A stretch of DNA of 63,677 nt, filler included, from Asterionella formosa (lineage: Eukaryota): assembly GCA_002256025.1 (NCBI GenBank). It is 21 parts of 21 records of this genome, joined end to end, with 100 filler letters (N's around TTAATTAATTAA, not from the genome) between each part and the next. Parts side by side here need not be neighbours in the genome. Positions count along the whole stretch, not along the records: positions 34,982 to 36,682 come from NKIB01001445.1; 20 more parts are not named here. One strand, 5' to 3'. The position numbers were made by a program, and so were the translations under genes. A model generated the notes under the pieces. It was not told the origin of the DNA. It did no database searches and worked only from the letters and a program-made list of their open reading frames with translations. This document shows positions 3,607-62,371 of the stretch, piece by piece. Numbering within the stretch: the first letter of the stretch is position 1; every line of letters begins with the position of its first letter.

Positions 3607-5308
3607 TGCTGAAGTGATCCACAAAAATCGTCGCCGCAGTATACCTTTGAGTAGTCGGAACTCCCTTCAGTTGCGCAATAAGGCCGGGTGCGGGCGACTG
3701 CATTTGATCGACTGACACGCATTTTCCGGGGAACGCGGGCAGGTCTCCTCCCACCTTGCCCGGTGGGGCCTTGGATCGCCATGCTCTGCGAGTGGCCTTG
3801 CCATACATGCAAGCAGCGCATTTTGGGATTCGTCCCTGAAGGAGGCTCTTTGGAAGAAAACCAGCTCCCGCCATGCAGCGAATCTGCTTGAAAGGAAGAT
3901 GTCCCAGCTGGTAATGGACTTGCAAAAGTTGGGCCGTAGAAGTCATGGCATCCTGTTCTTCAATCTCGATGGGCCGGGCATCGGTATCATGGAAAAGGTC
4001 GAATCCGGGCTGGTCAGGAGTGGTCGCGAGACTTCTCTGTTGGTTCTCAGCCGTGGTCATCGGAAACTTAGGAACTGTTGTAGGCTTTGGTTCTTTCCAC
4101 ATGAGTTCCGCATTTTCATCAAAGTCATACGGGAGTGTTGAATCTTGCTCCTTTGCCTGACCATCAGACCAGATGCACTTATTGTCAGGAACAGTGTTTA
4201 GTTTAAAACACCTAAGCTCTGTTTTGAAATCTGTTTGCGTTTTGAGAATCGCCTCATATATTTGATATCGGTTAGTCCCTGGGGCAGTTAGCAACGTAGC
4301 TACATTTGTAGCCGGATTCAGCTTGACATTTCGAATATAGAGATTATTGTCCCAGCACAGGGTCACCCTATCTTCATAGGTAGTGCACCATGCTCCCTTA
4401 GTCCCAATCCGACCACGGTTAATTTCTTTCTCCAGTGTCGGGGTGATAACATCCTAAATGGGGCCTTGGGCGCATAAAATGTCCCAGGAATACGAAAAAT
4501 GTGAACACGTCCCGTATCATCTTCTATTTTCCACTTAACCGTTCCCTTCAGTAGAACCGGTATGGGGCCTCCCACGCCACTTATTTGGGCTTTTACCTGA
4601 GTAGGGGTACCTACAAAGTCGGTGCGACAATTGGTGACGCATTTAGATCAGCAATTGTCAATCATTAGTAGATAACTGTCAGAATCAAATGGTCGAGGTG
4701 TGACTGAGCAACCTTGATAGGTGGTAGACATACTGTATCCCATAGGAGGGTGTGACGTTGCTATGTAGGCCTGCATCATGGTCGGGCGCATTTTATGAGG
4801 GGCCTTCCATTTTTCGCCCACACAAACCCATGATTGCCCATGGCGAGATTGGCACCGTTTTGATGATTAAGCCAGAGTGAATTCCATCTTTCGTAGCATG
4901 GCTTCGAAAATGCTTATACCATATTGTAACCCAGCGTAAGCATATAGTGGAATCTTGGAACGTTTTCGCTTTGGTATGTACTGACTAGATGATGCAGAGC
5001 GCATAAAGGGGGTGCTGACAAAGATCACAAGAAACCATATACACCATAGGAATGCTTCCGATGACATCGAAAGGTAATCCGACACGAGAGTCACAAAAAC
5101 TGGCCCACAGAGAATGAATTGATATAACCCATAGCTAAATATACCGCATCTGGATGTGGGACACACGTTCAATCAGAATCTGCGATACTGTCTCGTGGTT
5201 TCCAACCAAAGTCCACCTACCCTGTAATTCATCCACTGACCTCATCACAACCAGTTTGCAGGACATTGCCTATGCCTTGTTACATCCCACCACTCGGTCT
5301 CCCATTGC
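3607..5308 (-). mobile_element. Degenerate Ty1/copia (CoDi-like) pol fragment: protease region, GAG-pre-integrase, integrase start
   Basis: FDSDSYLLMIDNC*, GTVKWKIEDDTG, HYQLGHLPF, CAACMYGK, PGKCVSVDQMQS, TIFVDHFS; contains an in-frame stop and a frameshift near 4365. Confidence 0.85.
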
Positions 5309-7210: not shown

Positions 7211-7877
7211 GCATTCACTTTCTCAGCTGTAAACCCGTGTCTCCACCTAGCCTCACTACATCCATCCCTCCTCTAACGGTGCTATTTACGTCCACTGTCA
7301 AATTCTTAAGGAGGTTGTATCAAGTGCTGCTGAGGCCGAATTAGCTGCTTTATTCCACAATGGCAAAGAGGCATATGCTATTCGCACCATTCTTGCTGCG
7401 CTTGGTCATCCCCAACCTTCTACCCGTATTGTCACCGATAATAGCACTGCCAGTGGCATCGCCAATGATACTGTCCGACAAAAACGTTCCAAAGCTATGG
7501 ATATGCGTTATTACTGGGTACGCGATCGGGTTCGCCAAGGCCAATTTCTTGTATACTGGAAAAAAGGTAGTTTGAATCGTGCTGATTATTTCACTAAACA
7601 TCATCCCGCTTCCCATCATATGTTGATGCGCCCGCACTATCTCCATTGCCCTCCATCCCTCCCTAGTCCTCCTAACTATTATGCGTGCTTGGCTTCCGAT
7701 GCTGATAGCATCTCCATCCCCGCTCCTGTTCTTCTGCCTGCATCTGTTGGTGAGGGTGTGTTAATATCTGCATATGATGCTCCATACATGCGCCGTACGA
7801 ACCATACCGGCGCAGCCACCAGATTAGGTACATGCGTGAGTGCTGACAACGATGTACTTGGAACAGCAATAGAATAG
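7211..7877 (+). mobile_element. Copia RNase H 3' end of pol, running through the PPT into the 3' LTR
   Basis: VVSSAAEAELAALF, TDNSTA, KRSKAMDMRYYWVRDR, NRADYFTKHHP; PPT GGTGAGGGTG lies immediately before the LTR. Confidence 0.92.
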
Positions 7878-7925
7878 TCATAATATTGTAGTTCACCTTT
7901 ATTCACGATAAGGTTCCCCTCAACA
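7759..7925 (+). repeat. 167-bp LTR (3' LTR of copia family B)
   Basis: TGTT...AACA termini; apparently identical to 35108-35274. Confidence 0.93.
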
Positions 7926-7990
7926 CCAGGTACCAGGGTACAGTACTCTCGTACCAGGTACCTGGTACCAGTACCAGGTACCCCGTAGAA

Positions 7991-8256
7991 TGTTGGCCAA
8001 CAACGAACTCCTGACGATTCATCTTGAATTCCCATCTTGAGCAGTGTTTTACATCTATAAGGAGGTTGGTACATTGAAAAGTGCAACGTCACTAGGGAGT
8101 ACCGTTAGTGTAATACTACAGGTAGGGCGATTTTCACACTGAATGCCCACTTTACATTATTAATTTTCAACTGATAAAACCACTCTGTGTGAATGTTCTC
8201 CTGATCCTGTTGTCTTATCGACACAGCCGAGGAACACAAACACCGTAGTTTCGACA
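7991..8256 (+). repeat. Probable solo LTR related to copia family A LTR; left boundary uncertain
   Basis: 8125-8256 resembles the 3' half of LTR 10720-10983 (cactctgtgtgaa, ctgttgtcttatcg-cacag, gtagttt-c-aca). A TGTTG start at 7991 gives a similar length; no TSD found. Confidence 0.65.
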
Positions 8257-10578: not shown

Positions 10579-10719
10579 TGCAGTTTGATATCCGCATCAT
10601 TGGAACGACGAATTGTTAGATTTATCATTCGTGACACCAGATAAAAAATGTGTATCATTCAAGGCATTGAATATTAGATGTCATCAATATTTTGTATTCA
10701 TAGGTTAGGAACCAGTCCG

Positions 10720-10983
10720 TGTTAGGAAACCTACATATGACAATGGTACATAATGACGGATGGACTGTGGTGCAACACAACCAAACAAAGGACGAAAAAG
10801 CGCCATGTAGGGCGCCATGTCAACACAGAACTGATTAGCAGTTCGATTGCCACATCAAATGCTCACTTTACCTAATTATCTGGTTTACAATCAATTTGAC
10901 CACTCTGCACTCTGTGTGAACATTCCCCTCATTCTGTTGTCTTATCGGCACAGTTGGGGGATGCAAATACTGTAGTTTCAACA
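10720..10983 (+). repeat. 5' LTR family A (264 bp)
   Basis: Direct repeat of 16459-16718 with scattered substitutions and indels. Confidence 0.93.
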
Positions 10984-13149
10984 TAATTAGTTAAAGGTTG
11001 AAGTAACAGCAACAAAATGGGGACCAGTGACAATGATGGCCCCAGAGATGACAATATAAACACTCCACAAAAAGAAAAGAAGGAATCAAGGGAGACCAGA
11101 AAGAAACAACACATGTATGGGTACCACAAGCTCATGATACCAAGACAGGAGCCCAAGTTTGAGGGCAAATGCGATGACCTAAAGGGCCACATTTATGACT
11201 GTTCCAATGTAAGACAGCCAGATATCTTCATGAAGAAAACAAAGGAGATTGGAGAATTAGTCAGAAGGACATACAAGTATGGTGGGTAAATCTGGTTGGT
11301 TGTTGAGAATCTGGAGTTACCAGTCATGGCTGAACCAAGTGACCCACCAGAAAATTCGACCAGGACTCAAAAAAGGATCTGGGAAAAGCAAGTTGATGAG
11401 TTTGTAAAGTGGAGACGCTATCTTGCTTAAAAAATCAAGACTTTATACTCATTGGTGTGGGGACAGGAGTGCACCAACATCATGCAACAGAAGATCAAGG
11501 CACTGGACACATTTGATAATATGTTGAGTACAGGTGATGGACTATCACTATTAAGGCCATTAAGGACATGGCATATAATTTCCAAAGCCAAAAATATTTT
11601 CTCCACTTTCTAAATAAATTGAAGTGCCGATTCTACCTATGAACTCAAGGACAGTTTGCAACGACAAATGAAGTATAATTAGAACAGCAGTTTCAAAACT
11701 TAGTTGACATGATTGAACACAGTGGCAGGTCTGTTGGGCATGATCCAGGAATCGAAAAAATCATTGCCACAGAGCAGGGAAAGAATCTATCGACAATGAA
11801 TTCATCTATGAGAGAGGAAATAAAAAGGGATGCCCAGGGGAAGTACCTTGCTGTTGCTTCTTTCCTACTTGGCGCTTACCAATCGCACTTTAGAAGGCCA
11901 GTAGAGAATCTGAAGATCGATTTTTTGCAGGGTCAGAACAATCATCCTACTACGGTCACTGCTGCACATCATCTTCTCACCATCTGGAAACAGGAGTCTC
12001 GGAATCTTTTGCGCCCAATAGGGCCTGCCAGTGATGGTGTGTCATTTACAAATGTCCATGATAATACATCTGATCCTGAAGTCACTCTTGCAAACAATGA
12101 GCCATGTGACAGGGCCAGCATAACATGTCACAAATGCGGCAAGCAAGGGCATTATGCAAAAGAGTGTACTGAGCAACGTCAGTCGGCCGGGAGTGACAAT
12201 ACTCATTGCTGGTATGGAGGATGGAGAGTTCTTGATAACCTTTCAACTGTGGATGTGTTTCAATGTGTTTCACAATGCTGCCTTACTAGGCAATAAACAT
12301 GAGGGTAAGATTCACATGGATATACATTGCGATTCCAGAGTCACTAGCACCAAAATGGTTGGAGAAATGCCTGGATATGGTACAGTGTGGTACCATCCCA
12401 ATGGCATAGCAAACATTCTATCCTTATCCCGAGTGAAGGAAAGGGGATACAGAGTCACACATGACAGCACAAACGGGAACGAGTTCATGGTTCATTAATC
12501 AGATGGGACTTCAAGAATATTAATGGAATCTGAGCAAGGCTTGTAATTGCTTCATGTACACCAATGCCAGCGTGCTAGCCGTCGCTCTAATCAACACAGT
12601 AGCAGATAATCGGTCTAGCTACACAAACTGTGAGTACTCCCGCGCTATGTTGCTAGCTCGTAAAATCCAAATAATGATAGGACGGCCAGCAAGCACACAT
12701 ACTTTAATGAAAATTGATGACAACAACCTACTATCCAACTGTCCAAATAATCGAAGCAACATTGCTGCGGCAGAAAACATTTTTGGGCCAGATTTGAGAT
12801 CTCTTGAAGGCAAAACCATCTATCAGGCAGCCACATGGGTAGAGGCCTACACTGTCAATATCCCAGAAGAAATAATGAGTCAATACCGTGACATCATCCT
12901 TGCTGGACACATCATGTTTGTCAACAAGATACCATTCTTTATGCTGAGAATATCCCGATACATTAAGTTTGGAACTGCCAAGATGATATAAAATCAGCAA
13001 GGTAGTAATACAATCCTTACTGCGATTGTTAAGCAAGTAATGAGCATCTAGATGAAAAGTATATTTTAAAGTATGCGTGATAGAGCCTCGAATATAGTGG
13101 AGTTCGTGGGTTGCACCAGAGCCTAGCGCGCCCGGTAGAAACAATACAA

Positions 13150-14150
13150 TTTTTGCATTAAAGTGTCCGAAAATGTAGAAACCGTCAGTCACCAGGGGAG
13201 CTCGTGATTATTTCCGCAATGCGAATTTTTTATTTGCGTAAAGAACATGCAGTTTATTGTTACATTTCTATATGTATGTCTATCATAAACTTTAAATTGA
13301 CCTTATCAAGACTCCATAGAAATATGGACCATGACAATTAGTGCTTGTTACATGGCTGAAACTCACTACAAATTTGACATAGAGGTATTTCTTGCATCTT
13401 GAGGTGTTGTGCTCTCTCCGAGATTTCTATTGCTCAAGTTTTCTCATCAATTTGTACAGCATATAGCAATAATTATCTTATAGAAGTTATCAAGCTAGTT
13501 ACGGTGGACTCAACGATGTCTCGTTTTTGCTCGTATCTTCAAAACTGAGCAAATGACGACCAAAAGCAACTTCCAGCGGCGATTTTTGTCAATACCAGGC
13601 AGTGCAAAACATTATGTTATTGAACGATTATCTCTTCTATGTTAGTCTACATACTCGTGCGAAATAGGAATTGTTCATTGTCAGTATTCGTGAAGATATT
13701 CAACTCCATAATTTTGTCATGGTCAAGATGGAGTTGCTGTCTCATCAACCCCATACCACAGGCAGCTGTACAAACATACCACATGCAAGTACTGGTAGTA
13801 CCCAGTAGTATGTATGCCAAGCATATATAATATACAACGCTATATATACGGAATGTACAAAGCATATACTATACAATGTTTGTTGTATGTATGATGTGTT
13901 CCAGCCATGTCGAAAATGTAAGTACATCTTATACAGTATGTATCCGATTTCTTGACAAAATATACAGTGGTACAAATTTATTTTTATTCTTCGATTTTCA
14001 ATATACTAAGTAAAAAGAGTCATTGAAAATTTAGTTTCTATCATTGATAGAAATTAAAATTGATTTGCTACAAATTTATTCAAAAAAAGTAATCCCGAGT
14101 TCCCCCGACAAACTCATTATGCATTTTCGGACACTTTTATGCAAAAAGGG
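13150..14150. mobile_element. Non-autonomous TIR element (piggyBac-like right end) nested in the copia integrase
   Basis: TTTTTGCATTAAAGTGTCCGAAAATG at 13150 is inverted as CATTTTCGGACACTTTTATGCAAAAA-GGG at 14122-14150. A second imperfect IR lies internally (GGGGAGCTCGTGATTA / TAATCCCGAGTTCCCC). No coding capacity. Confidence 0.7.
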
Positions 14151-14507
14151 TAATGGACCAATGGATGATAAGATGGGTTTGTTGCTGCTCATATGCAGTC
14201 AAGGGGCCGGAGCGTTGATTTTGGCAGACATGGTATGCAGTGATAATGGTGAGACGGCTGTGGTTTGCAACCCGAACTGCTGGAGCCATTGCCCTTCGTC
14301 CCACAGCCAGGCAACGAATAAGGCGGATACTATTTCCTCAGCCTCACTACTGGTCGTGTCCTTTATAAAAACCACTGGACGGAACTACCTATGCCGCATG
14401 AGTTCATTGATCAGGTACATGCACTCGCCCACCGCAATGGTAGCAGCATGGGCACAGCAGGCCTTGAATTTACTGATCGAGATGGGGGTAATCCACTAGT
14501 CAACACA

Positions 14508-14632
14508 GATGATGATGACAGTGATGATGAATCTTATAACCCAAATCCCTCTGATGATGGTTATGATGGTGATGATGGTGATGATGGTGATGATGGTGAT
14601 GATGGTGATGATGATGATGATGGTGATGATGG

Positions 14633-14679
<47 letters not shown>

Positions 14680-14733
14680 ATGATGATTATGATGATTATG
14701 ATGATTATGATGATTATGATGATTATGATGATT

Positions 14734-14800
<67 letters not shown>

Positions 14801-14828
14801 GTATGAGTATGAGTATGAGTATGAGTAT
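14508..14828 (+). repeat. Compound microsatellite (GAT)n/(GATGATGGT)n/(GATGATTAT)n/(GAGTAT)n in the copia integrase-RT linker
   Basis: Read directly from the sequence; encodes in-frame poly-D, DDG, DDY and EY tracts. Confidence 0.95.
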
Positions 14829-16458
14829 AAGTTTGATGACATCCCCAATGATCTTGACAATGAGTCAAATGATGACAACAATGGGTATGATGATAACAAT
14901 GCCAATGACTCCAATGCTGCTCTCATTGCAAGAGTGTATGGCAACGAAAATGGAAATGAAAATAATGAGCATGATGACAATATTGAATACGAAAATGTTA
15001 GTGAACCTGATGAAGAACAAATCGAACAAGAAAACAACAATGAATATGGGAATGAAATTGAATTACAAATCCCTGAGCAAGGAAATGTGGAAACTGAATC
15101 CGGTGAAGCCGATAACGACTTTGAGAATGAAATGGATGAATGCTATGAGATGCGCAGTGAAAACTATGATCTCTGTCCTAGGCGTCCACATGACTACAGT
15201 CACTTAGACACCACACTTGAGAGCATTATCATGACACAACACAGTATGAAGAAAAGAATTAAGCTGTTTGGGGAGGCAGGTGTAGATGCAGTACTGTAGG
15301 AGCTGCAACAGCTTCATGATCGAGAAGTTATAAAGCCCAAAAATGCACCTGAGTTGTCAGCAAGCAATAAAAAGGGGCAATACAATAATTAATGTTCTTA
15401 AAACAGAAGCTTAACTGCACTGTTAAGGGCAGAGGATGTGCAGACTGAAGAAAACAACGAGATTACACCTTTAAGGAAGAATTCAGCTCGCCCACAGTGG
15501 CAATTGAATCAGTAATGTTGTCAAGCGTCATAGATGCAAAGGAATGTCGAGACGTTTTGACTGTTGACATCCCAGGTGCATTTTGGCAAGCCGACATGGA
15601 ATACAAAATTCACATGAAATTGGAGGGGAAAATGGATGAACTCCTTGTCAGAATCAATCCAAAATTATTTAGTAGGAAACATGTCCAAGTTGAACGTGGA
15701 GAACAGGTGCTTTCTGTTGAGCTAGAAAGCACACTAAGGAATGGAGAGGCCGCCACTCCAACTGCAGGACAACTTTTTGAAACTAATGGAACTGATACCA
15801 TCCCGCTTGGTGAGGAATAGGCTGAAATGTCCATTTCAATGTTTTGCCATGCTTCTGTTCCTATGCAAACGGGCCCGTCCTGAGATACAAAACGCCGTGG
15901 CTTTCCTCTGTACCCAAGGGAAGGGACCAGAGGACACAGACGACTTAAAAAAGCTTGCCCACATAATGAAACACCTCAGATTATCAAATGGTGGATTGAT
16001 ACGTCATTTGCTGTTCTTCTGACATGAAAAGCCACACTGGTGGTGCCATGAAGCTAGGAAAAGGAATGATATGAGATGCCACATCCACTTGCCAAAAAAT
16101 CAATACCAGGAGTTCCACTGAGGGGGAACTGGTGGGTGTAAATGATGTCATGCCGCAGCACAGGGATATGATATTATGGACTCACTCACCATCTACCAGG
16201 ACAACCAGAATACCATGCTGTCATTGGAAAAGAATGGCCATTCCTCCAGCAGTAAACGGACTTGCCATATTAACATTCGGTACTTCTTTGTTACCAACCG
16301 TATTGCCTCCAAGGATGTGTCTGTCACATATTGTCCAACTGGCAATATGATTGCTAATTGTTTTACAAAGCCCCTCCAGGGGTCGTTATTCAAGAAGTTT
16401 CGGAATCAAATCCTGAACATTGATTCATTGACTGACAGCTCATTGGATCACAGGAGTG

Positions 16459-16718
16459 TGTTAGGAAACCTACATACGACAATTGTACATGATGATGCAT
16501 GGACTGTGGTCCAACACAAACAAATTAAGAAAAAGCGCTATGCTGGGCGCCCTGTCATCACAGAACTGATTAGCAGTTCGATTGCCACATCGAATGCTCA
16601 CTTTAACTTATTATCTGGCTTACAATCAATTTGACCACTCTGCACTCTGTGTGAACATTCCCCTCATTCTGTTGTCTTATCGGCACAGTTGGGGGATGTA
16701 AATACGGTAGTTTCAACA
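16459..16718 (+). repeat. 3' LTR family A (260 bp)
   Basis: Preceded by purine-rich CAGGAGTG; TGTTAGG...TTTCAACA. Confidence 0.93.
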
Positions 16719-16723
16719 GTCCC

Positions 16724-16937
16724 TGTCCGGCAACATGTTGTCTGTATCAGGAAAATGACCGCAACCAGCAGAATTCGAAAAATAGTCAGCACCACAACTA
16801 AAACTCATAATTCTATAAAATCTTTTAGGAATGATTACAATCAACCATTCTTCATAGTATCTACAGCCTATTTGGTCCCTGACATATCCTTACAGGATAC
16901 GAAAAGCAATAGAAGGCTTCAGGGCACAATTTCAACA
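16724..16937 (+). repeat. LTR remnant of copia family C
   Basis: Shares ataattctat-aaa, gattacaatc, tatctacagcctatttggtccctgac, tccttacaggatac and the caatttcaaca end with the LTR at 61980-62238. Confidence 0.8.
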
Positions 16938-33396: not shown

Positions 33397-33484
33397 CAAG
33401 TTGCGGTCATTTTGCTTAAACTAACATTTCAATCTAGGATAAAAATAGCTAAATCTTTAGTTTCAGCAAAATTACCGCAACTTG
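33397..33484. mobile_element. 88-bp MITE, TIR CAAGTTGCGGT, CAG target duplication
   Basis: cag|CAAGTTGCGGTCATTTTGCT...AGCAAAATTACCGCAACTTG|cag. Confidence 0.85.
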
Positions 33485-34260: not shown

Positions 34261-35107
34261 AGGATAAAAGGAGGTTCTTGGTTATTATGAGTTTTTACAA
34301 TTAGTGCATCTATATTAACTCATAGTTAAAGGGAGCGATTCACAAAGACCTGAATGCAAAGGTCATTAGATGTCATAACATTGGTATGGATAAACTAGAG
34401 GTGCATAAATACCAATAGTTATCACATTGCATATAGTTGTGGGTACATAACAATGTAACATGTACTACAAGCTACAAACTACAAACTAGTAACTGTGTAT
34501 TTAGCATCACCTACTAATCATCATCAATCCCGTGTACATGTATGTACTACATATGGGTACCATGGTACCAGGTAGTAGTCTTGTGCGAAATGAAAAAGAG
34601 TACATCTTTCACTTATGGTACCAGGTAGTCATTGCTTGGATATGCAATGTGCACTCATTGGTGGTTAGTACTAGTAAAATGTTCTAGTAGACGCTCTGTG
34701 CTTGCCCTTGACCCTGACGGAATCTAGCTCACCAGTAAAGCCCCCAATTTTTTGGATTGGGGGAATGAGTTTCACCCTAAAATATTTCCTTACAAATCGA
34801 ATTTCAGCATAATAGTATTCAAAACGATCATGCCACAGATGGAAGATAACTGCTGTCTGAGCTGGCCAGCATAGTATTTATNNNNNNNNNNNNNNNNNNN
34901 NNNNNNNNNNNNNNNNNNNNNNNNNTTAATTAATTAANNNNNNNNNNNNNNNNNNNNNNNNNNNNNNNNNNNNNNNNNNNNAATGCATTTCTCCACCGGT
35001 ATGAATGTACAGAAGTGCACTGTTCTGGAAAATATCGGTATGCATCATACATAGGAGAACGACGTAGTACATACATCTTGCATCCCTGTATGCATTCCGG
35101 TATCAAC

Positions 35108-35274
35108 TGTTAATATCTGCATATGATGCTCCATACATGCGCCGTACGAACCATACCGGCGCAGCCACCAGATTAGGTACATGCGTGAGTGCTGACAACG
35201 ATGTACTTGGAACAGCAATAGAATAGTCATAATATTGTAGTTCACCTTTATTCACGATAAGGTTCCCCTCAACA
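35108..35274 (+). repeat. 167-bp 5' LTR of copia family B
   Basis: Same sequence as 7759-7925; followed by a leader and gag. Confidence 0.93.
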
Positions 35275-35421
35275 GAACTACAATATCTGTTCTTTCTCTC
35301 TTGTCCGCACCTGCGAAGTTGCGGGTCTTGTTGACAGTGCAAACCAGCACTGGTCTCAACAATCAACCGTCCAGCACCGCTTGCCCGTTCGCTGTCCCTG
35401 TCTCTCAGGCCTTCTTCCACC

Positions 35422-36510
35422 ATGACGACTCCAATCGTTTCCGCTGTTTTCCCCTTCCCTCATCCGCTCTTGACGCCGATCGAGGGCAAACCTACAGCCT
35501 TCACTGTAACCCGCCTTCGCAAGGAACTCTTTGCCAACGCTCGCTCTGTCCACTGTACCAGTGGTGGTGGTGCCAATGGTTTCCTTGGTATTGTCATGGC
35601 TGCTGCTCCTTATCTCTTACGTGCCGGTGAACCCTTTGTACCGCCCGAACATCCCGGCATCCAGCCGACACACAGTGCTACTGCAACACAGTCCCAAATC
35701 ACTGCTGCCAACCGTCTCTTTGACACCTCCCTTGACGCATTCCGCCGTTACTCCCAAATCCGTGAAATTCTCCGACAACAAATTCTAACAGCCATTGACC
35801 CAACCTACTACAACGTTCTGGAAGATGCTACATTTGGATATGCAGACATCACTGTTCTGACCTTACTTGCTCACTTAGAATCTACATATGCAACATTGAG
35901 TGCGGATGATTTGGAACTCAATCGCATGCGCTTGGCCGATGCTTGGACACCAGAGGAACCTATTGAGCATTTATGGATCCGCATCAAACATCTTCGTGCC
36001 ATTGCTGATGCTGGTGGAGAACCTTTCTCTGACAGTACTGTCATGCGATTGACTCTTTCTGCTTTAGAACAGGCTGGTGTATATTCGCATAGCATTCAAA
36101 CTTGGCGTGATCGCGCTGAGCTGGACCGTACATGGGTTAATTTTTGCCCACATTTCATGCATGCTGATAAGGAACGATTGCGCCTTGCCACCGCCACCAC
36201 TGCCGGTTATCATGGTGCCCATGCTGCCATTCAAACCAGTGGCCCTCCCCCATTGCCAGCTATTGCTGCCGCTGCTCGTGCTGTCCCTTCTGGATACACT
36301 TACAACAATGTCCAATTAGGCTATTGTTGGACTCATGGTCTTACCAAAAACCCTGACCATACCAGTGCAACTTGCAATCATCCAGCTTCTGGCCATCAAC
36401 TCAATGCCACCCTTGATCGACGTCTGGGTGGCAGCGTCCGTCTGTTCAGTGATGGTCCCCGTCCTACCCGGCCACCCCGTGTTTCACCGCCACCTTCACC
36501 ACTTGCTTGA
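35422..36510 (+). CDS. Copia family B Gag
   Basis: Intact 362-aa ORF 148 bp downstream of the LTR; GGGANGFLG, DATFGYA, and YCWTHG...HTSATC Zn-knuckle-like motif typical of CoDi-like gags. Confidence 0.88.
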   Translation: MTTPIVSAVFPFPHPLLTPIEGKPTAFTVTRLRKELFANARSVHCTSGGGANGFLGIVMAAAPYLLRAGEPFVPPEHPGIQPTHSATATQSQITAANRLFDTSLDAFRRYSQIREILRQQILTAIDPTYYNVLEDATFGYADITVLTLLAHLESTYATLSADDLELNRMRLADAWTPEEPIEHLWIRIKHLRAIADAGGEPFSDSTVMRLTLSALEQAGVYSHSIQTWRDRAELDRTWVNFCPHFMHADKERLRLATATTAGYHGAHAAIQTSGPPPLPAIAAAARAVPSGYTYNNVQLGYCWTHGLTKNPDHTSATCNHPASGHQLNATLDRRLGGSVRLFSDGPRPTRPPRVSPPPSPLA

Positions 36511-36682
36511 TGTGGAGGGGAGCAAGTTGCTGCCGATAATACTATTAACACAAAGTTATCTCCCATCACTTGTCCCCCCGTCACACTCATTGCTGATTCT
36601 GGTAGTTCTGGCAATTACGCCACTGTTGATTTACCTGTCATCAACAAACGACCTACCACCAACCCTATCACCATTCAACTTC
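36511..36682 (+). CDS. Start of pol (aspartic protease), in frame after the gag UGA
   Basis: CGGEQVAA...TLIADSGSSGNY...NPITIQL in the same frame as gag, with no ATG before the DSG motif. Confidence 0.8.
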
Positions 36683-51082: not shown

Positions 51083-51182
51083 NNNNNNNNNNNNNNNNNN
51101 NNNNNNNNNNNNNNNNNNNNNNNNNNTTAATTAATTAANNNNNNNNNNNNNNNNNNNNNNNNNNNNNNNNNNNNNNNNNNNN

Positions 51183-52881
51183 TCATACCGGTCAACTTCT
51201 CGTATTCGCGTAGAAGTTGCATACGAAATTTCTGCATTTGCACCTCCCAGTATTCACCATACTTGTCCTCTTTCCAAGCATATTCCACTCCTAGGTGTTT
51301 CTGTAGAATACCCTGCTCGGTAATATTGAAATCTTCCTTGATAACATTTTTCATATACCGGTACTCCACTGCACTTGGAGTCCCACATACAATACCGTCA
51401 TCCACGTAATTAACAAGTAGACCATCAATTTGTCCATCCTTGTTCCGGTGCATAAATAACATAGGGTCGATCTTGCTCTTCGTCATACCTGGTTTATTGG
51501 TGACACATTTCGCAAACGTCCTGGACCAGCATCGTGGAGCTTGTACTATCCCGTACATAGCCTTCACAAGCTTGCAAACATGTGTATCGGAATCGACTCC
51601 GATCAAACCTTGAGGGGGCTCAATATAAATGTCCTCATCGACGTCAGCATTTAGAAATGCTGCTTCCACATCAATAGCCTCCGCTCGCCAACCGTTGTAC
51701 ATCGTCACTGCGAGTACCGTTTTGATTGTCGCATCGCTTGCAACTGGAGCAAATGTCTCAGTAAAATCGACACCTGGGATTTGCTCATATCCCTTCACGA
51801 CCAATCTTGCCTTGTAAATGGTCTTCCCGGTTAACACATCTTCTTTAATTCGAAACACCCATCTCGTTTTTAGTGTTCGCTTCTTAACAGTATCACGTTT
51901 GATAACTTTCCACACTCCTCTCGACTGGAAGTTTTCATATTCTTTGTTGATCGCCTTGATCCACTCTTTCTTGTCTGGTCTTGCCATTGCTTCATCGTAG
52001 CTTGTTGGTAATCCTGGATCAGAAGCCAGACTTGCGTTGTACACAAAATTCACCTGTGTATTCTTCGTAATTTCCTTCATGTTATCCTCCTCGATAACAC
52101 CAGGCATCTCAGTATCTCCTGAAAATTTCACAATTTTCGTACTCGTAGGATTGAACGATGAGTCCAATCTTCGCATTTCACGTGCCAACTTCGCTTGCTT
52201 AGACTGAGCACTTTCCGCACGTTTAGCCTTCACAATTGGGGTATTGGTACCTGTAACCTCGTATTTCGTAGTACCATCTATCTTAGTTGATTGTTCAGTT
52301 TTCCTCCCCAATTCTTGCTTGTCATCATCTTCATCTTCATTATCGGACACTTCTCGAGGTTCGAACTCGTCGTAAAAATCGTCATGTAACTCTTCATTAT
52401 CTTCTCGTACTGATATCTCCGTATCCTGTTGGTTGGTGACTGGCTTGAACATTTTCTCTAGTTGTTTGGAGTTCTCACCTGCGTCATCACATCGGACAAA
52501 TTTAGTCGTATGTCCTGCACCTGCAAGTTTTGTGAGTAACGCTCCAATGACAGTTCCGATGTCACTTTTCTTCTTAATAAAAAAACTCCAGCATTTCCTT
52601 GTATACCGGTAATCGTCCACGGCCATCACCCAATACTGATTTCCCACAGCGGATTTTGCGTAGGGTCCGCTAATATCAATAAACAGTCTTTCTCCTGGTG
52701 TCGTAGCCTTCTCTTGCGTCATCTTGGGTACTGCGCGTGCTTTCGCCTTGGCTGCTGCGCATCCTGCGCACACCTGTAAATTTCCAATAAGTTTCCACCC
52801 AAATAATTTCGATGTCTCACGAAGACATTTTTCCCCCACATGTCCAAGCATTTCATGCGCTTCATTTATTTCCACAATCAC
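51183..52881 (-). mobile_element. Copia pol fragment: GAG-pre-integrase, internally deleted integrase, RT
   Basis: HEMLGH..CAGC, FIDISGP, VRCDDAGE, KARLVVKGYEQIPGVDFTETFAP, DVEAAFL, MYGIVQAPR, YVDD. Confidence 0.92.
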
Positions 52882-61979: not shown

Positions 61980-62238
61980 GAAAATATTTTAGGAAAGAAA
62001 ATCCCGGTATAAATTACCTACTACATATTGAATCGAATGAATCAAGAAAGAATATGGTACCAGAGAATTCGAAAACAATCTACGCCAACAGTAAAAACCC
62101 ATAATTCTATTAAAACTCTTAGGAACGATTACAATCGATCACGGAGACATCGTTGTTATATCTACAGCCTATTTGGTCCCTGACGTGTCCTTACAGGATA
62201 CAAGAAAGCATAGAGTGCTTCGGGACGCAATTTCAACA
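61980..62238 (+). repeat. 5' LTR of copia family C (5' end cut by contig edge)
   Basis: Ends TTTCAACA exactly where similarity to 16724-16937 ends; gag follows. Confidence 0.8.
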
Positions 62239-62371
62239 GTTTTAATAGAATTAGCCGGCCAGGAAGAGCCGTGATACCACAATCAACAACAAGCGGACAA
62301 TTGAGAGTCCGGAGACAAGATCTGAGGGTACCAGACCATCCAGAGTCTGAAGAAGTCGCACAAGGCGCATC

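Follow-up and report, generated by a model that had tools for sequence, protein, structure and literature searches.

The stretch of DNA analysed here (the window) comprises 63,677 nucleotides of the Asterionella formosa assembly GCA_002256025.1, joined from parts of 21 records. One of these, contig C1445 (NKIB01001445.1, positions 34,982 to 36,682), carries the 5' part of an LTR retrotransposon in plus orientation, a member of what is here called family B. The 5' LTR (35108–35274, 167 nt) has TG...CA ends that are common to 30 copies in the genome: the right end, directly before the primer-binding site (PBS), was identical in all 30 copies read, and the left end was the same TG in each of the 28 copies with the left flank in view, the flanks themselves differing. 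Contigs from public sequencing runs also diverged from the element exactly at both LTR edges. Downstream, a gag reading frame of 362 amino acids (35422–36510) is open, as the preliminary description had stated, and ends in a TGA in frame with pol; the start of pol, with the protease motif ADSGSS, extends over 172 nt (36511–36682) and is ended by the contig end. Elsewhere in the window, an internal piece of family B pol (167 nt, 99.4%) was found at 5142–5308, at a contig end, and the ORF at 698–1704 presumably encodes a PIF/Harbinger-like transposase.

The remainder of the element was supplied by three near-complete elements on metagenome contigs (L051–L053), which are collapsed assemblies 98.8–99.3% identical to the window element and which contain gag, the in-frame TGA and a pol that is open over 1356–1377 amino acids. 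In intact elements pol stays in the gag frame past the TGA, which points to stop-codon readthrough. A purine-rich stretch follows the TGA (36508–36510) in the window and likewise in L052, L053, L074, L075 and L080, with a similar context in L076 and L046. The motif order of the pol protein from L053 (P0003, 98.9% to the window) is one that we take to be PR-IN-RT-RH. Pfam matched this protein with SH3 at 441–497 and RVT_2 at 914–1030, the latter at 20.8 bits and thus below the 31.6 cut-off, and PF07727 was found on many relatives; Pfam returned no family for gag or for the RNase H piece at 7211–7758 described below. Among 30 relatives the RNase H acidic residues D1141, E1197 and D1232 were invariant and D1281 nearly so. 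Six two-LTR copies of the family were inspected for target-site duplications: four had clean 5-bp duplications, one was imperfect and one was not judged. The element thus shows the Ty1/copia hallmarks of TG...CA LTR ends, a polypurine tract before the 3' LTR and a 5-bp target duplication. The named relatives of its pol within the best 120 of 1,460 matches came from Cylindrotheca, Fragilaria, Fistulifera and Nitzschia (58–63%), and one of these 120 was named as a bacterium, which is likely contamination. These relatives and the genome's putative plastid contigs point to a diatom host. No relatives were found on viral contigs, and Rfam gave 0 matches.

A search of the genome (68 Mb in 15,436 contigs) yielded 266 candidate copies, of which 40 were scored and 30 fetched and compared. 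At least 99% identity over 333 nt was seen in 15 of the 30 (window copy included), with differing flanks, and this copy identity supports the earlier proposal that the family is young. The reason originally given, identity between two LTR copies, did not survive. A second LTR identical to 35108–35274 does lie in the window, on the plus strand at 7759–7925, where it closes another family copy as its 3' LTR and follows that copy's RNase H end and polypurine tract (7211–7758, tract at 7749–7758). The two LTRs are, however, on separate contigs (C1444 and C1445), and there is no target-site duplication between their flanks, GTATCAAC and CCAGGTAC; they belong to different insertions, so that their identity cannot date one element.

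The PBS begins at the first base past the LTR. Its 12 nucleotides (35275–35286, plus strand, GAACTACAATAT) are the exact reverse complement of an arm within the LTR (35232–35243, plus strand, ATATTGTAGTTC), from which they are separated by 31 nt (35244–35274). This perfect complementarity had been noted in the preliminary description, together with the lack of a TGG after the LTR, and both were confirmed by direct reading. Among the top genome copies the arm was intact in 30 of 30 and the PBS in 28 of 30. Dinucleotide shuffling of the LTR produced a 12-nt complement in only 1 of 20,000 trials, with offsets of 0–2 allowed. Across the window, 19 of 57,607 positions had a complement of at least 12 nt in the preceding 167 nt; these were mostly GGTACC repeats, the other cases being the B site and position 62238, which belongs to a second LTR family. 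Repeats of the GGTACC/CCAGGTACC type are numerous (7926–7980, 34560, 37540, 38060 and 56860), a related dispersed repeat occurs at 33450, 37951 and 56730, and several insertions adjoin such repeats.

Folding of the 5' leader, which had been proposed as a check, gave a predicted structure for 35230–35424 of -48.3 kcal/mol (z -3.5; 0 of 200 shuffles equal) consisting of a central helix and one inner hairpin only. A small R/U5 hairpin (35244–35263, plus strand) is predicted to stack on the primer helix, at the start of the 31-nt strong-stop template (35244–35274). The inner hairpin was paired in 91.8% of cells in lineage B, and one of its pairs was changed on both sides, a pair that is unpaired in 15 of 33 rows. 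When leaders were folded together with the PBS, the intramolecular primer helix had a probability of 0.98–1.0 in nine of ten; in L074, which has 9 bp only, the arm was unpaired in the predicted fold (mean probability 0.18). The very short R-U5 described earlier also held up, the 31-nt loop being the shortest seen and shared with one foreign element (L075).

While the leader structure is a prediction, the pairing itself is backed by sequence and covariation. We chose 20 loci for divergence among 138 gag matches, and the 17 with a B-type junction comprised ten perfect helices of at least 12 bp, one helix of 10 bp and six decayed junctions. A second set of 20 loci contributed B copies with nine perfect helices, one of 10 bp and one decayed, and three without a junction. 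L048, L061, L067 and L069 were without a junction, and neither L076, for which no LTR was in view, nor the ambiguous L086 was judged. Subfamily B2 (gag about 80%) pairs ATATTGTAACTC with GAGTTACAATAT, and subfamily B3 (gag 62–70%) pairs ATATTGTAGCTC with GAGCTACAATAT. In a set of 33 distinct gap-free junctions, from which duplicates and the indel rows L038, L039, L043 and L064 were left out, the helix was 97% paired, compared with 32–43% for slid controls, and 0 of 500 shuffles matched its paired fraction or covariation score. Two of the 12 helix pairs were changed on both sides (GC in 28 junctions and AU in 3; UA in 23 and CG in 9). On a tree these compensatory changes represent two or three inherited events, not 12, and the stronger evidence therefore lies across families. 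Two further features of these junctions were recorded: L046 (908–995) has a 44-nt tandem duplication in the loop, doubled to 87 nt with the helix untouched, and the apparent LTR end directly before the PBS reads TCAATA, not TCAACA, in L054, L047 and L074 (an end without 3' LTR support).

Pairing between arm and PBS, with different letters, was found in eight further families, four of them on foreign contigs. Family C (gag 35%) had 14, 14, 14 and 13 bp in four copies, with one decayed, and family D had 12 bp in one copy and two decayed related copies; C, D and B share ancestry. Family E pairs 62102–62117 with 62238–62253 of the window in a helix of 15–16 bp with a 122-nt loop, paired in 13 of 13 aligned copies; among its older relatives matched changes occurred at three of ten junctions, the other seven being decayed. 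B and E are 16% identical over 456 amino acids of pol (RT-RH). Family E is a very abundant young copia family (387 candidates, CCHC gag, co-varying variants), and its contig in the window starts inside the LTR. Family A pairs 10866–10878 with 10984–10996 at 12 of 13 positions in the window; 13 of 13 were paired in one of seven copies, and the other six were imperfect. The family A element (10719–16718), of copia type, is full-length but decayed, and its pol contains a long GAT repeat (14454–14894); solo LTR remnants akin to families E and A lie at 16770–16937 and 8181–8256. The foreign loci are eukaryotic pieces in bacterial bins (11 + 2 + 2 loci); contigs L074–L083, L085, L086, L207 and L208 are diatom-type retrotransposon contigs within bacterial genome bins, that is, bin contamination. 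The 5' junction could be judged in four foreign elements and was paired in all four: L075 (12 bp, 31-nt loop), L080 (15 bp, 54-nt loop), L074 (9 bp, 40-nt loop) and L207 (16 bp, 120-nt loop). Loop length across families ranged from 31 to 122 nt. Lineage F (of the type at 51139–52881) has a palindrome at the PBS position and no LTR complement. This 12-nt palindrome (L234:2739–2750, L235, L236, L243 and L245) stays palindromic while changing (CGCTTTAAAGCG, CGTTTTAAAACG and TGTTTTAAAACA), and it possibly serves in priming or in pairing between two genomic RNAs.

The helix also stands in a fixed relation to a candidate RNA start. Diatom promoters have been reported to contain an initiator-like motif, TCAH(+1)W (PMC4686930), and such a motif, TCATA, lies at 35227–35231 on the plus strand, which would place the start at 35230 (the H) or at 35229 (the A). 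TCAHW is found 13–15 nt before the 3' end of the arm in eight of nine families (B, C, D, A, L074, L075, L080 and L207), against a background in that register of 2.9% of window positions; the three-position interval was chosen after viewing these same families. Family E has CCATA at the initiator place, and two B2 copies have lost TCAHW. From its sequence, the RNA is predicted to start at 35230 (or 35229) rather than at 35232, which would give a primer of about 14 nt with two unpaired 5' bases, the arm forming its 3' 12 nt. This length resembles the distance of 13–19 nt from an RNA 5' end at which HIV-1 RNase H is reported to cut RNA:DNA (PMC5728404), a likeness that is suggestive only. As to public sequencing runs, 18 of the 21 listed contain the stretch, 13 of them recorded as RNA and all as contigs. 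The four runs examined had flanks at both LTR edges, so that DNA or read-through is present and neither an RNA end nor a level could be read; a depth peak of the run contigs at R-U5/PBS combines several subfamilies and was disregarded. L052, which begins with the last 55 nt of the LTR (35220), was considered as marking a start site and set aside as an assembly artefact.

Taken together, the sequence on C1445 is very likely the 5' end of a young element that belongs to a diatom-specific lineage of Ty1/copia retrotransposons and uses its own RNA to prime reverse transcription. Support for the self-priming architecture first put forward for this site thus comes from compensatory changes and from its recurrence in families whose arm sequences are unrelated. 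We propose that Pol II would start at the TCAHW initiator (35230) and that the first ~14 nt would fold back, the last 12 pairing with the PBS and closing the 31-nt loop with its small hairpin. By analogy with Tf1, the element's own RT/RNase H would then cut after 35243 and free a 3'-OH, from which RT would copy 35274 back to 35244, giving a strong-stop cDNA of only ~31 nt that would jump to the 3' LTR via the short R. During plus-strand synthesis the PBS would be copied anew from the primer, and this would account for the joint changes of arm and PBS.

An unlikely alternative is that the same primer acts in trans. It would then stem from another genomic RNA, an aborted transcript or a small RNA derived from the LTR, or would be released by a host nuclease, and neither fold-back nor RNase H cleavage of an RNA duplex would be involved. 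The free variation of the loop (31–122 nt) and the lack of a predicted pretzel would suit such a route, and covariation between arm and PBS would suit any route with the arm as primer. An intramolecular helix as probable as that of the nine leaders would, however, outcompete a primer in trans, and the precedent of Tf1 is RNase H cleavage (PMC7175516). It is very unlikely that the helix is purely structural, acting in translation control, packaging or PBS protection, with the RNA starting upstream and something else priming. In the main family B, U3 (35209–35215) can pair with 35287–35293, adding 7 bp to the helix, as would suit an RNA start located farther upstream, and one run contig (X1) spans the whole LTR, which may reflect DNA or a join through R. 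The 7-bp extension is nevertheless not kept in the other families shown; moreover, the initiator lies at a fixed distance and the 3' arm always starts at the LTR end, the exact start of minus-strand DNA. For a U3 hairpin over the 3' copy of the arm, 2 of 100 shuffles were as good in the main family B; as a general feature masking that copy it was rejected, being unremarkable in the other 12 of 13 sequences.

Priming by a host tRNA fragment (either a half tRNA or a 5' piece whose end lies in the D-arm), with the LTR match secondary, is highly improbable. The PBS was compared with 61 distinct tRNA genes from 49 loci, of which 27 genes lie on contigs that look nuclear and 34 on organelle-like ones, drawn from 63 of 3,876 candidates scored; the cytosolic part is incomplete (Asp, Glu, Gly, His, Pro, Tyr, Cys, Phe and Gln are absent), so the comparison is not exhaustive. 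The 3' ends of these 61 genes, from this incomplete cytosolic set, paired with at most 5 of the 12 PBS nucleotides. At their ends the arms of B, B2 and B3 do resemble tRNA positions 8–13, and the best internal match to the B PBS was 10 nt, Watson-Crick, to nt 5–14 of a tRNA-Asp, with 9 nt for a tRNA-Ile against B3; only organelle genes reached 10 nt. The tRNA-Asp gene lies on a contig that we take to be plastid from the gene names of its ORFs, and a genome-wide pattern search for the 10-nt match returned this one site, compared with two in the control. In half-tRNA-primed copia elements (copia, Osser and Bianca) the segment matched by the PBS lies inside the tRNA and ends in the anticodon arm; here, with a cytosolic set that is incomplete, 10 nt was reached in organelle genes. 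Furthermore, unrelated PBS sequences occur in families C, A and E as well as in the foreign elements, and if a tRNA were the primer nothing would oblige the LTR to co-vary. A control search for a tRNA-iMet-primed family gave 14 matches compared with 9 in its control; the four loci examined fell within ordinary genes and no such family was found. Lastly, a chance inverted repeat amplified with the family is scarcely credible despite the 19 window positions with such repeats, being ruled out by the compensatory changes; the position at the LTR end and the recurrence in nine families also speak against it.

Self-priming itself is already known, being proven so far for fission-yeast Tf1, a Ty3/gypsy element of the Tf1/sushi group, and only predicted for the plant copia TAR lineage. 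In Tf1 the RNA's initial 11 bases are reported to pair with the PBS, and RNase H to cut between bases 11 and 12 (PMC7175516). As in Tf1 and Tf2 of Schizosaccharomyces pombe, Tj1 of S. japonicus and the Tf1/sushi group at large, the PBS of the diatom element lies at the 5' LTR and is complementary to the predicted 5' end of its own RNA, and no tRNA 3' end among the 61 genes compared fits it; Tj1 is also described as having an in-frame stop between gag and pol (PMC4600332). By all signs in its sequence the element would work like Tf1, yet it is no member of Tf1/sushi: those are Ty3/gypsy chromoviruses with the order PR-RT-RH-IN and a chromodomain, whereas the diatom element has PR-IN-RT-RH and no chromodomain was found. 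It also differs from Tf1 in a predicted primer of 13–15 nt with up to three unpaired 5' bases and in a loop of only 31 nt; the third duplex of the Tf1 pretzel (bioRxiv 10.1101/2022.12.06.519325) is not predicted in it.

Self-priming has been predicted for the copia TAR elements, and also for Tcn1, from an LTR complement of at least 10 bp located 0–5 nt after the LTR (PMC6317226). The diatom element resembles TAR (Houba and Osr-1) in this respect, with 12 bp at offset 0, whereas, of the 120 best matches out of 1,460, the named relatives were diatom proteins and none carried a plant name. It also resembles the CoDi elements (Blackbeard and Surcouf; CoDiI/CoDiII), described as a diatom-specific copia lineage: its LTR of 167 nt compares with 163 nt in Blackbeard, and both have one stop between gag and pol (PMC2806351). 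A gag search for a named CoDi reference gave one match, from Fistulifera. In the main text of that source (Maumus et al., 2009) we found no statement on primer sites, which its supplement may list. Fungal GalEa copia elements likewise have no tRNA PBS; their conserved hairpin site is reported to be a palindrome with no LTR complement (PMC5445492), whereas the diatom site is non-palindromic and has one. The palindrome of lineage F resembles the GalEa site. No report of self-priming in diatoms was found in the literature searched, which did not extend to subscription journals or the CoDi database pages.

We suggest tentatively, as a proposal still open to considerable doubt, that diatom copia elements have largely abandoned tRNA priming, with at least two lineages, 16% identical in RT-RH, self-priming with an initiator-measured primer of 13–15 nt, no pretzel and a strong-stop cDNA down to 31 nt, and with a third lineage using a co-varying palindrome. 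If so, self-priming would be of old standing in the copia branch and would have been put to use there repeatedly, while the RNase H of copia elements would cleave RNA:RNA at a defined distance from the cap. LTR finders that demand a tRNA PBS would under-call diatom elements. Being young and high in copy number, with gag and pol open, compensatory variants that occur naturally and a start site that can be predicted, this family makes primer-making by a copia RT/RNase H directly testable, and it would also allow a test of how a 31-nt strong-stop cDNA achieves strand transfer. A self-priming precursor has been the subject of speculation (PMC3601003), and the finding would bear on which came first, tRNA priming or self-priming.
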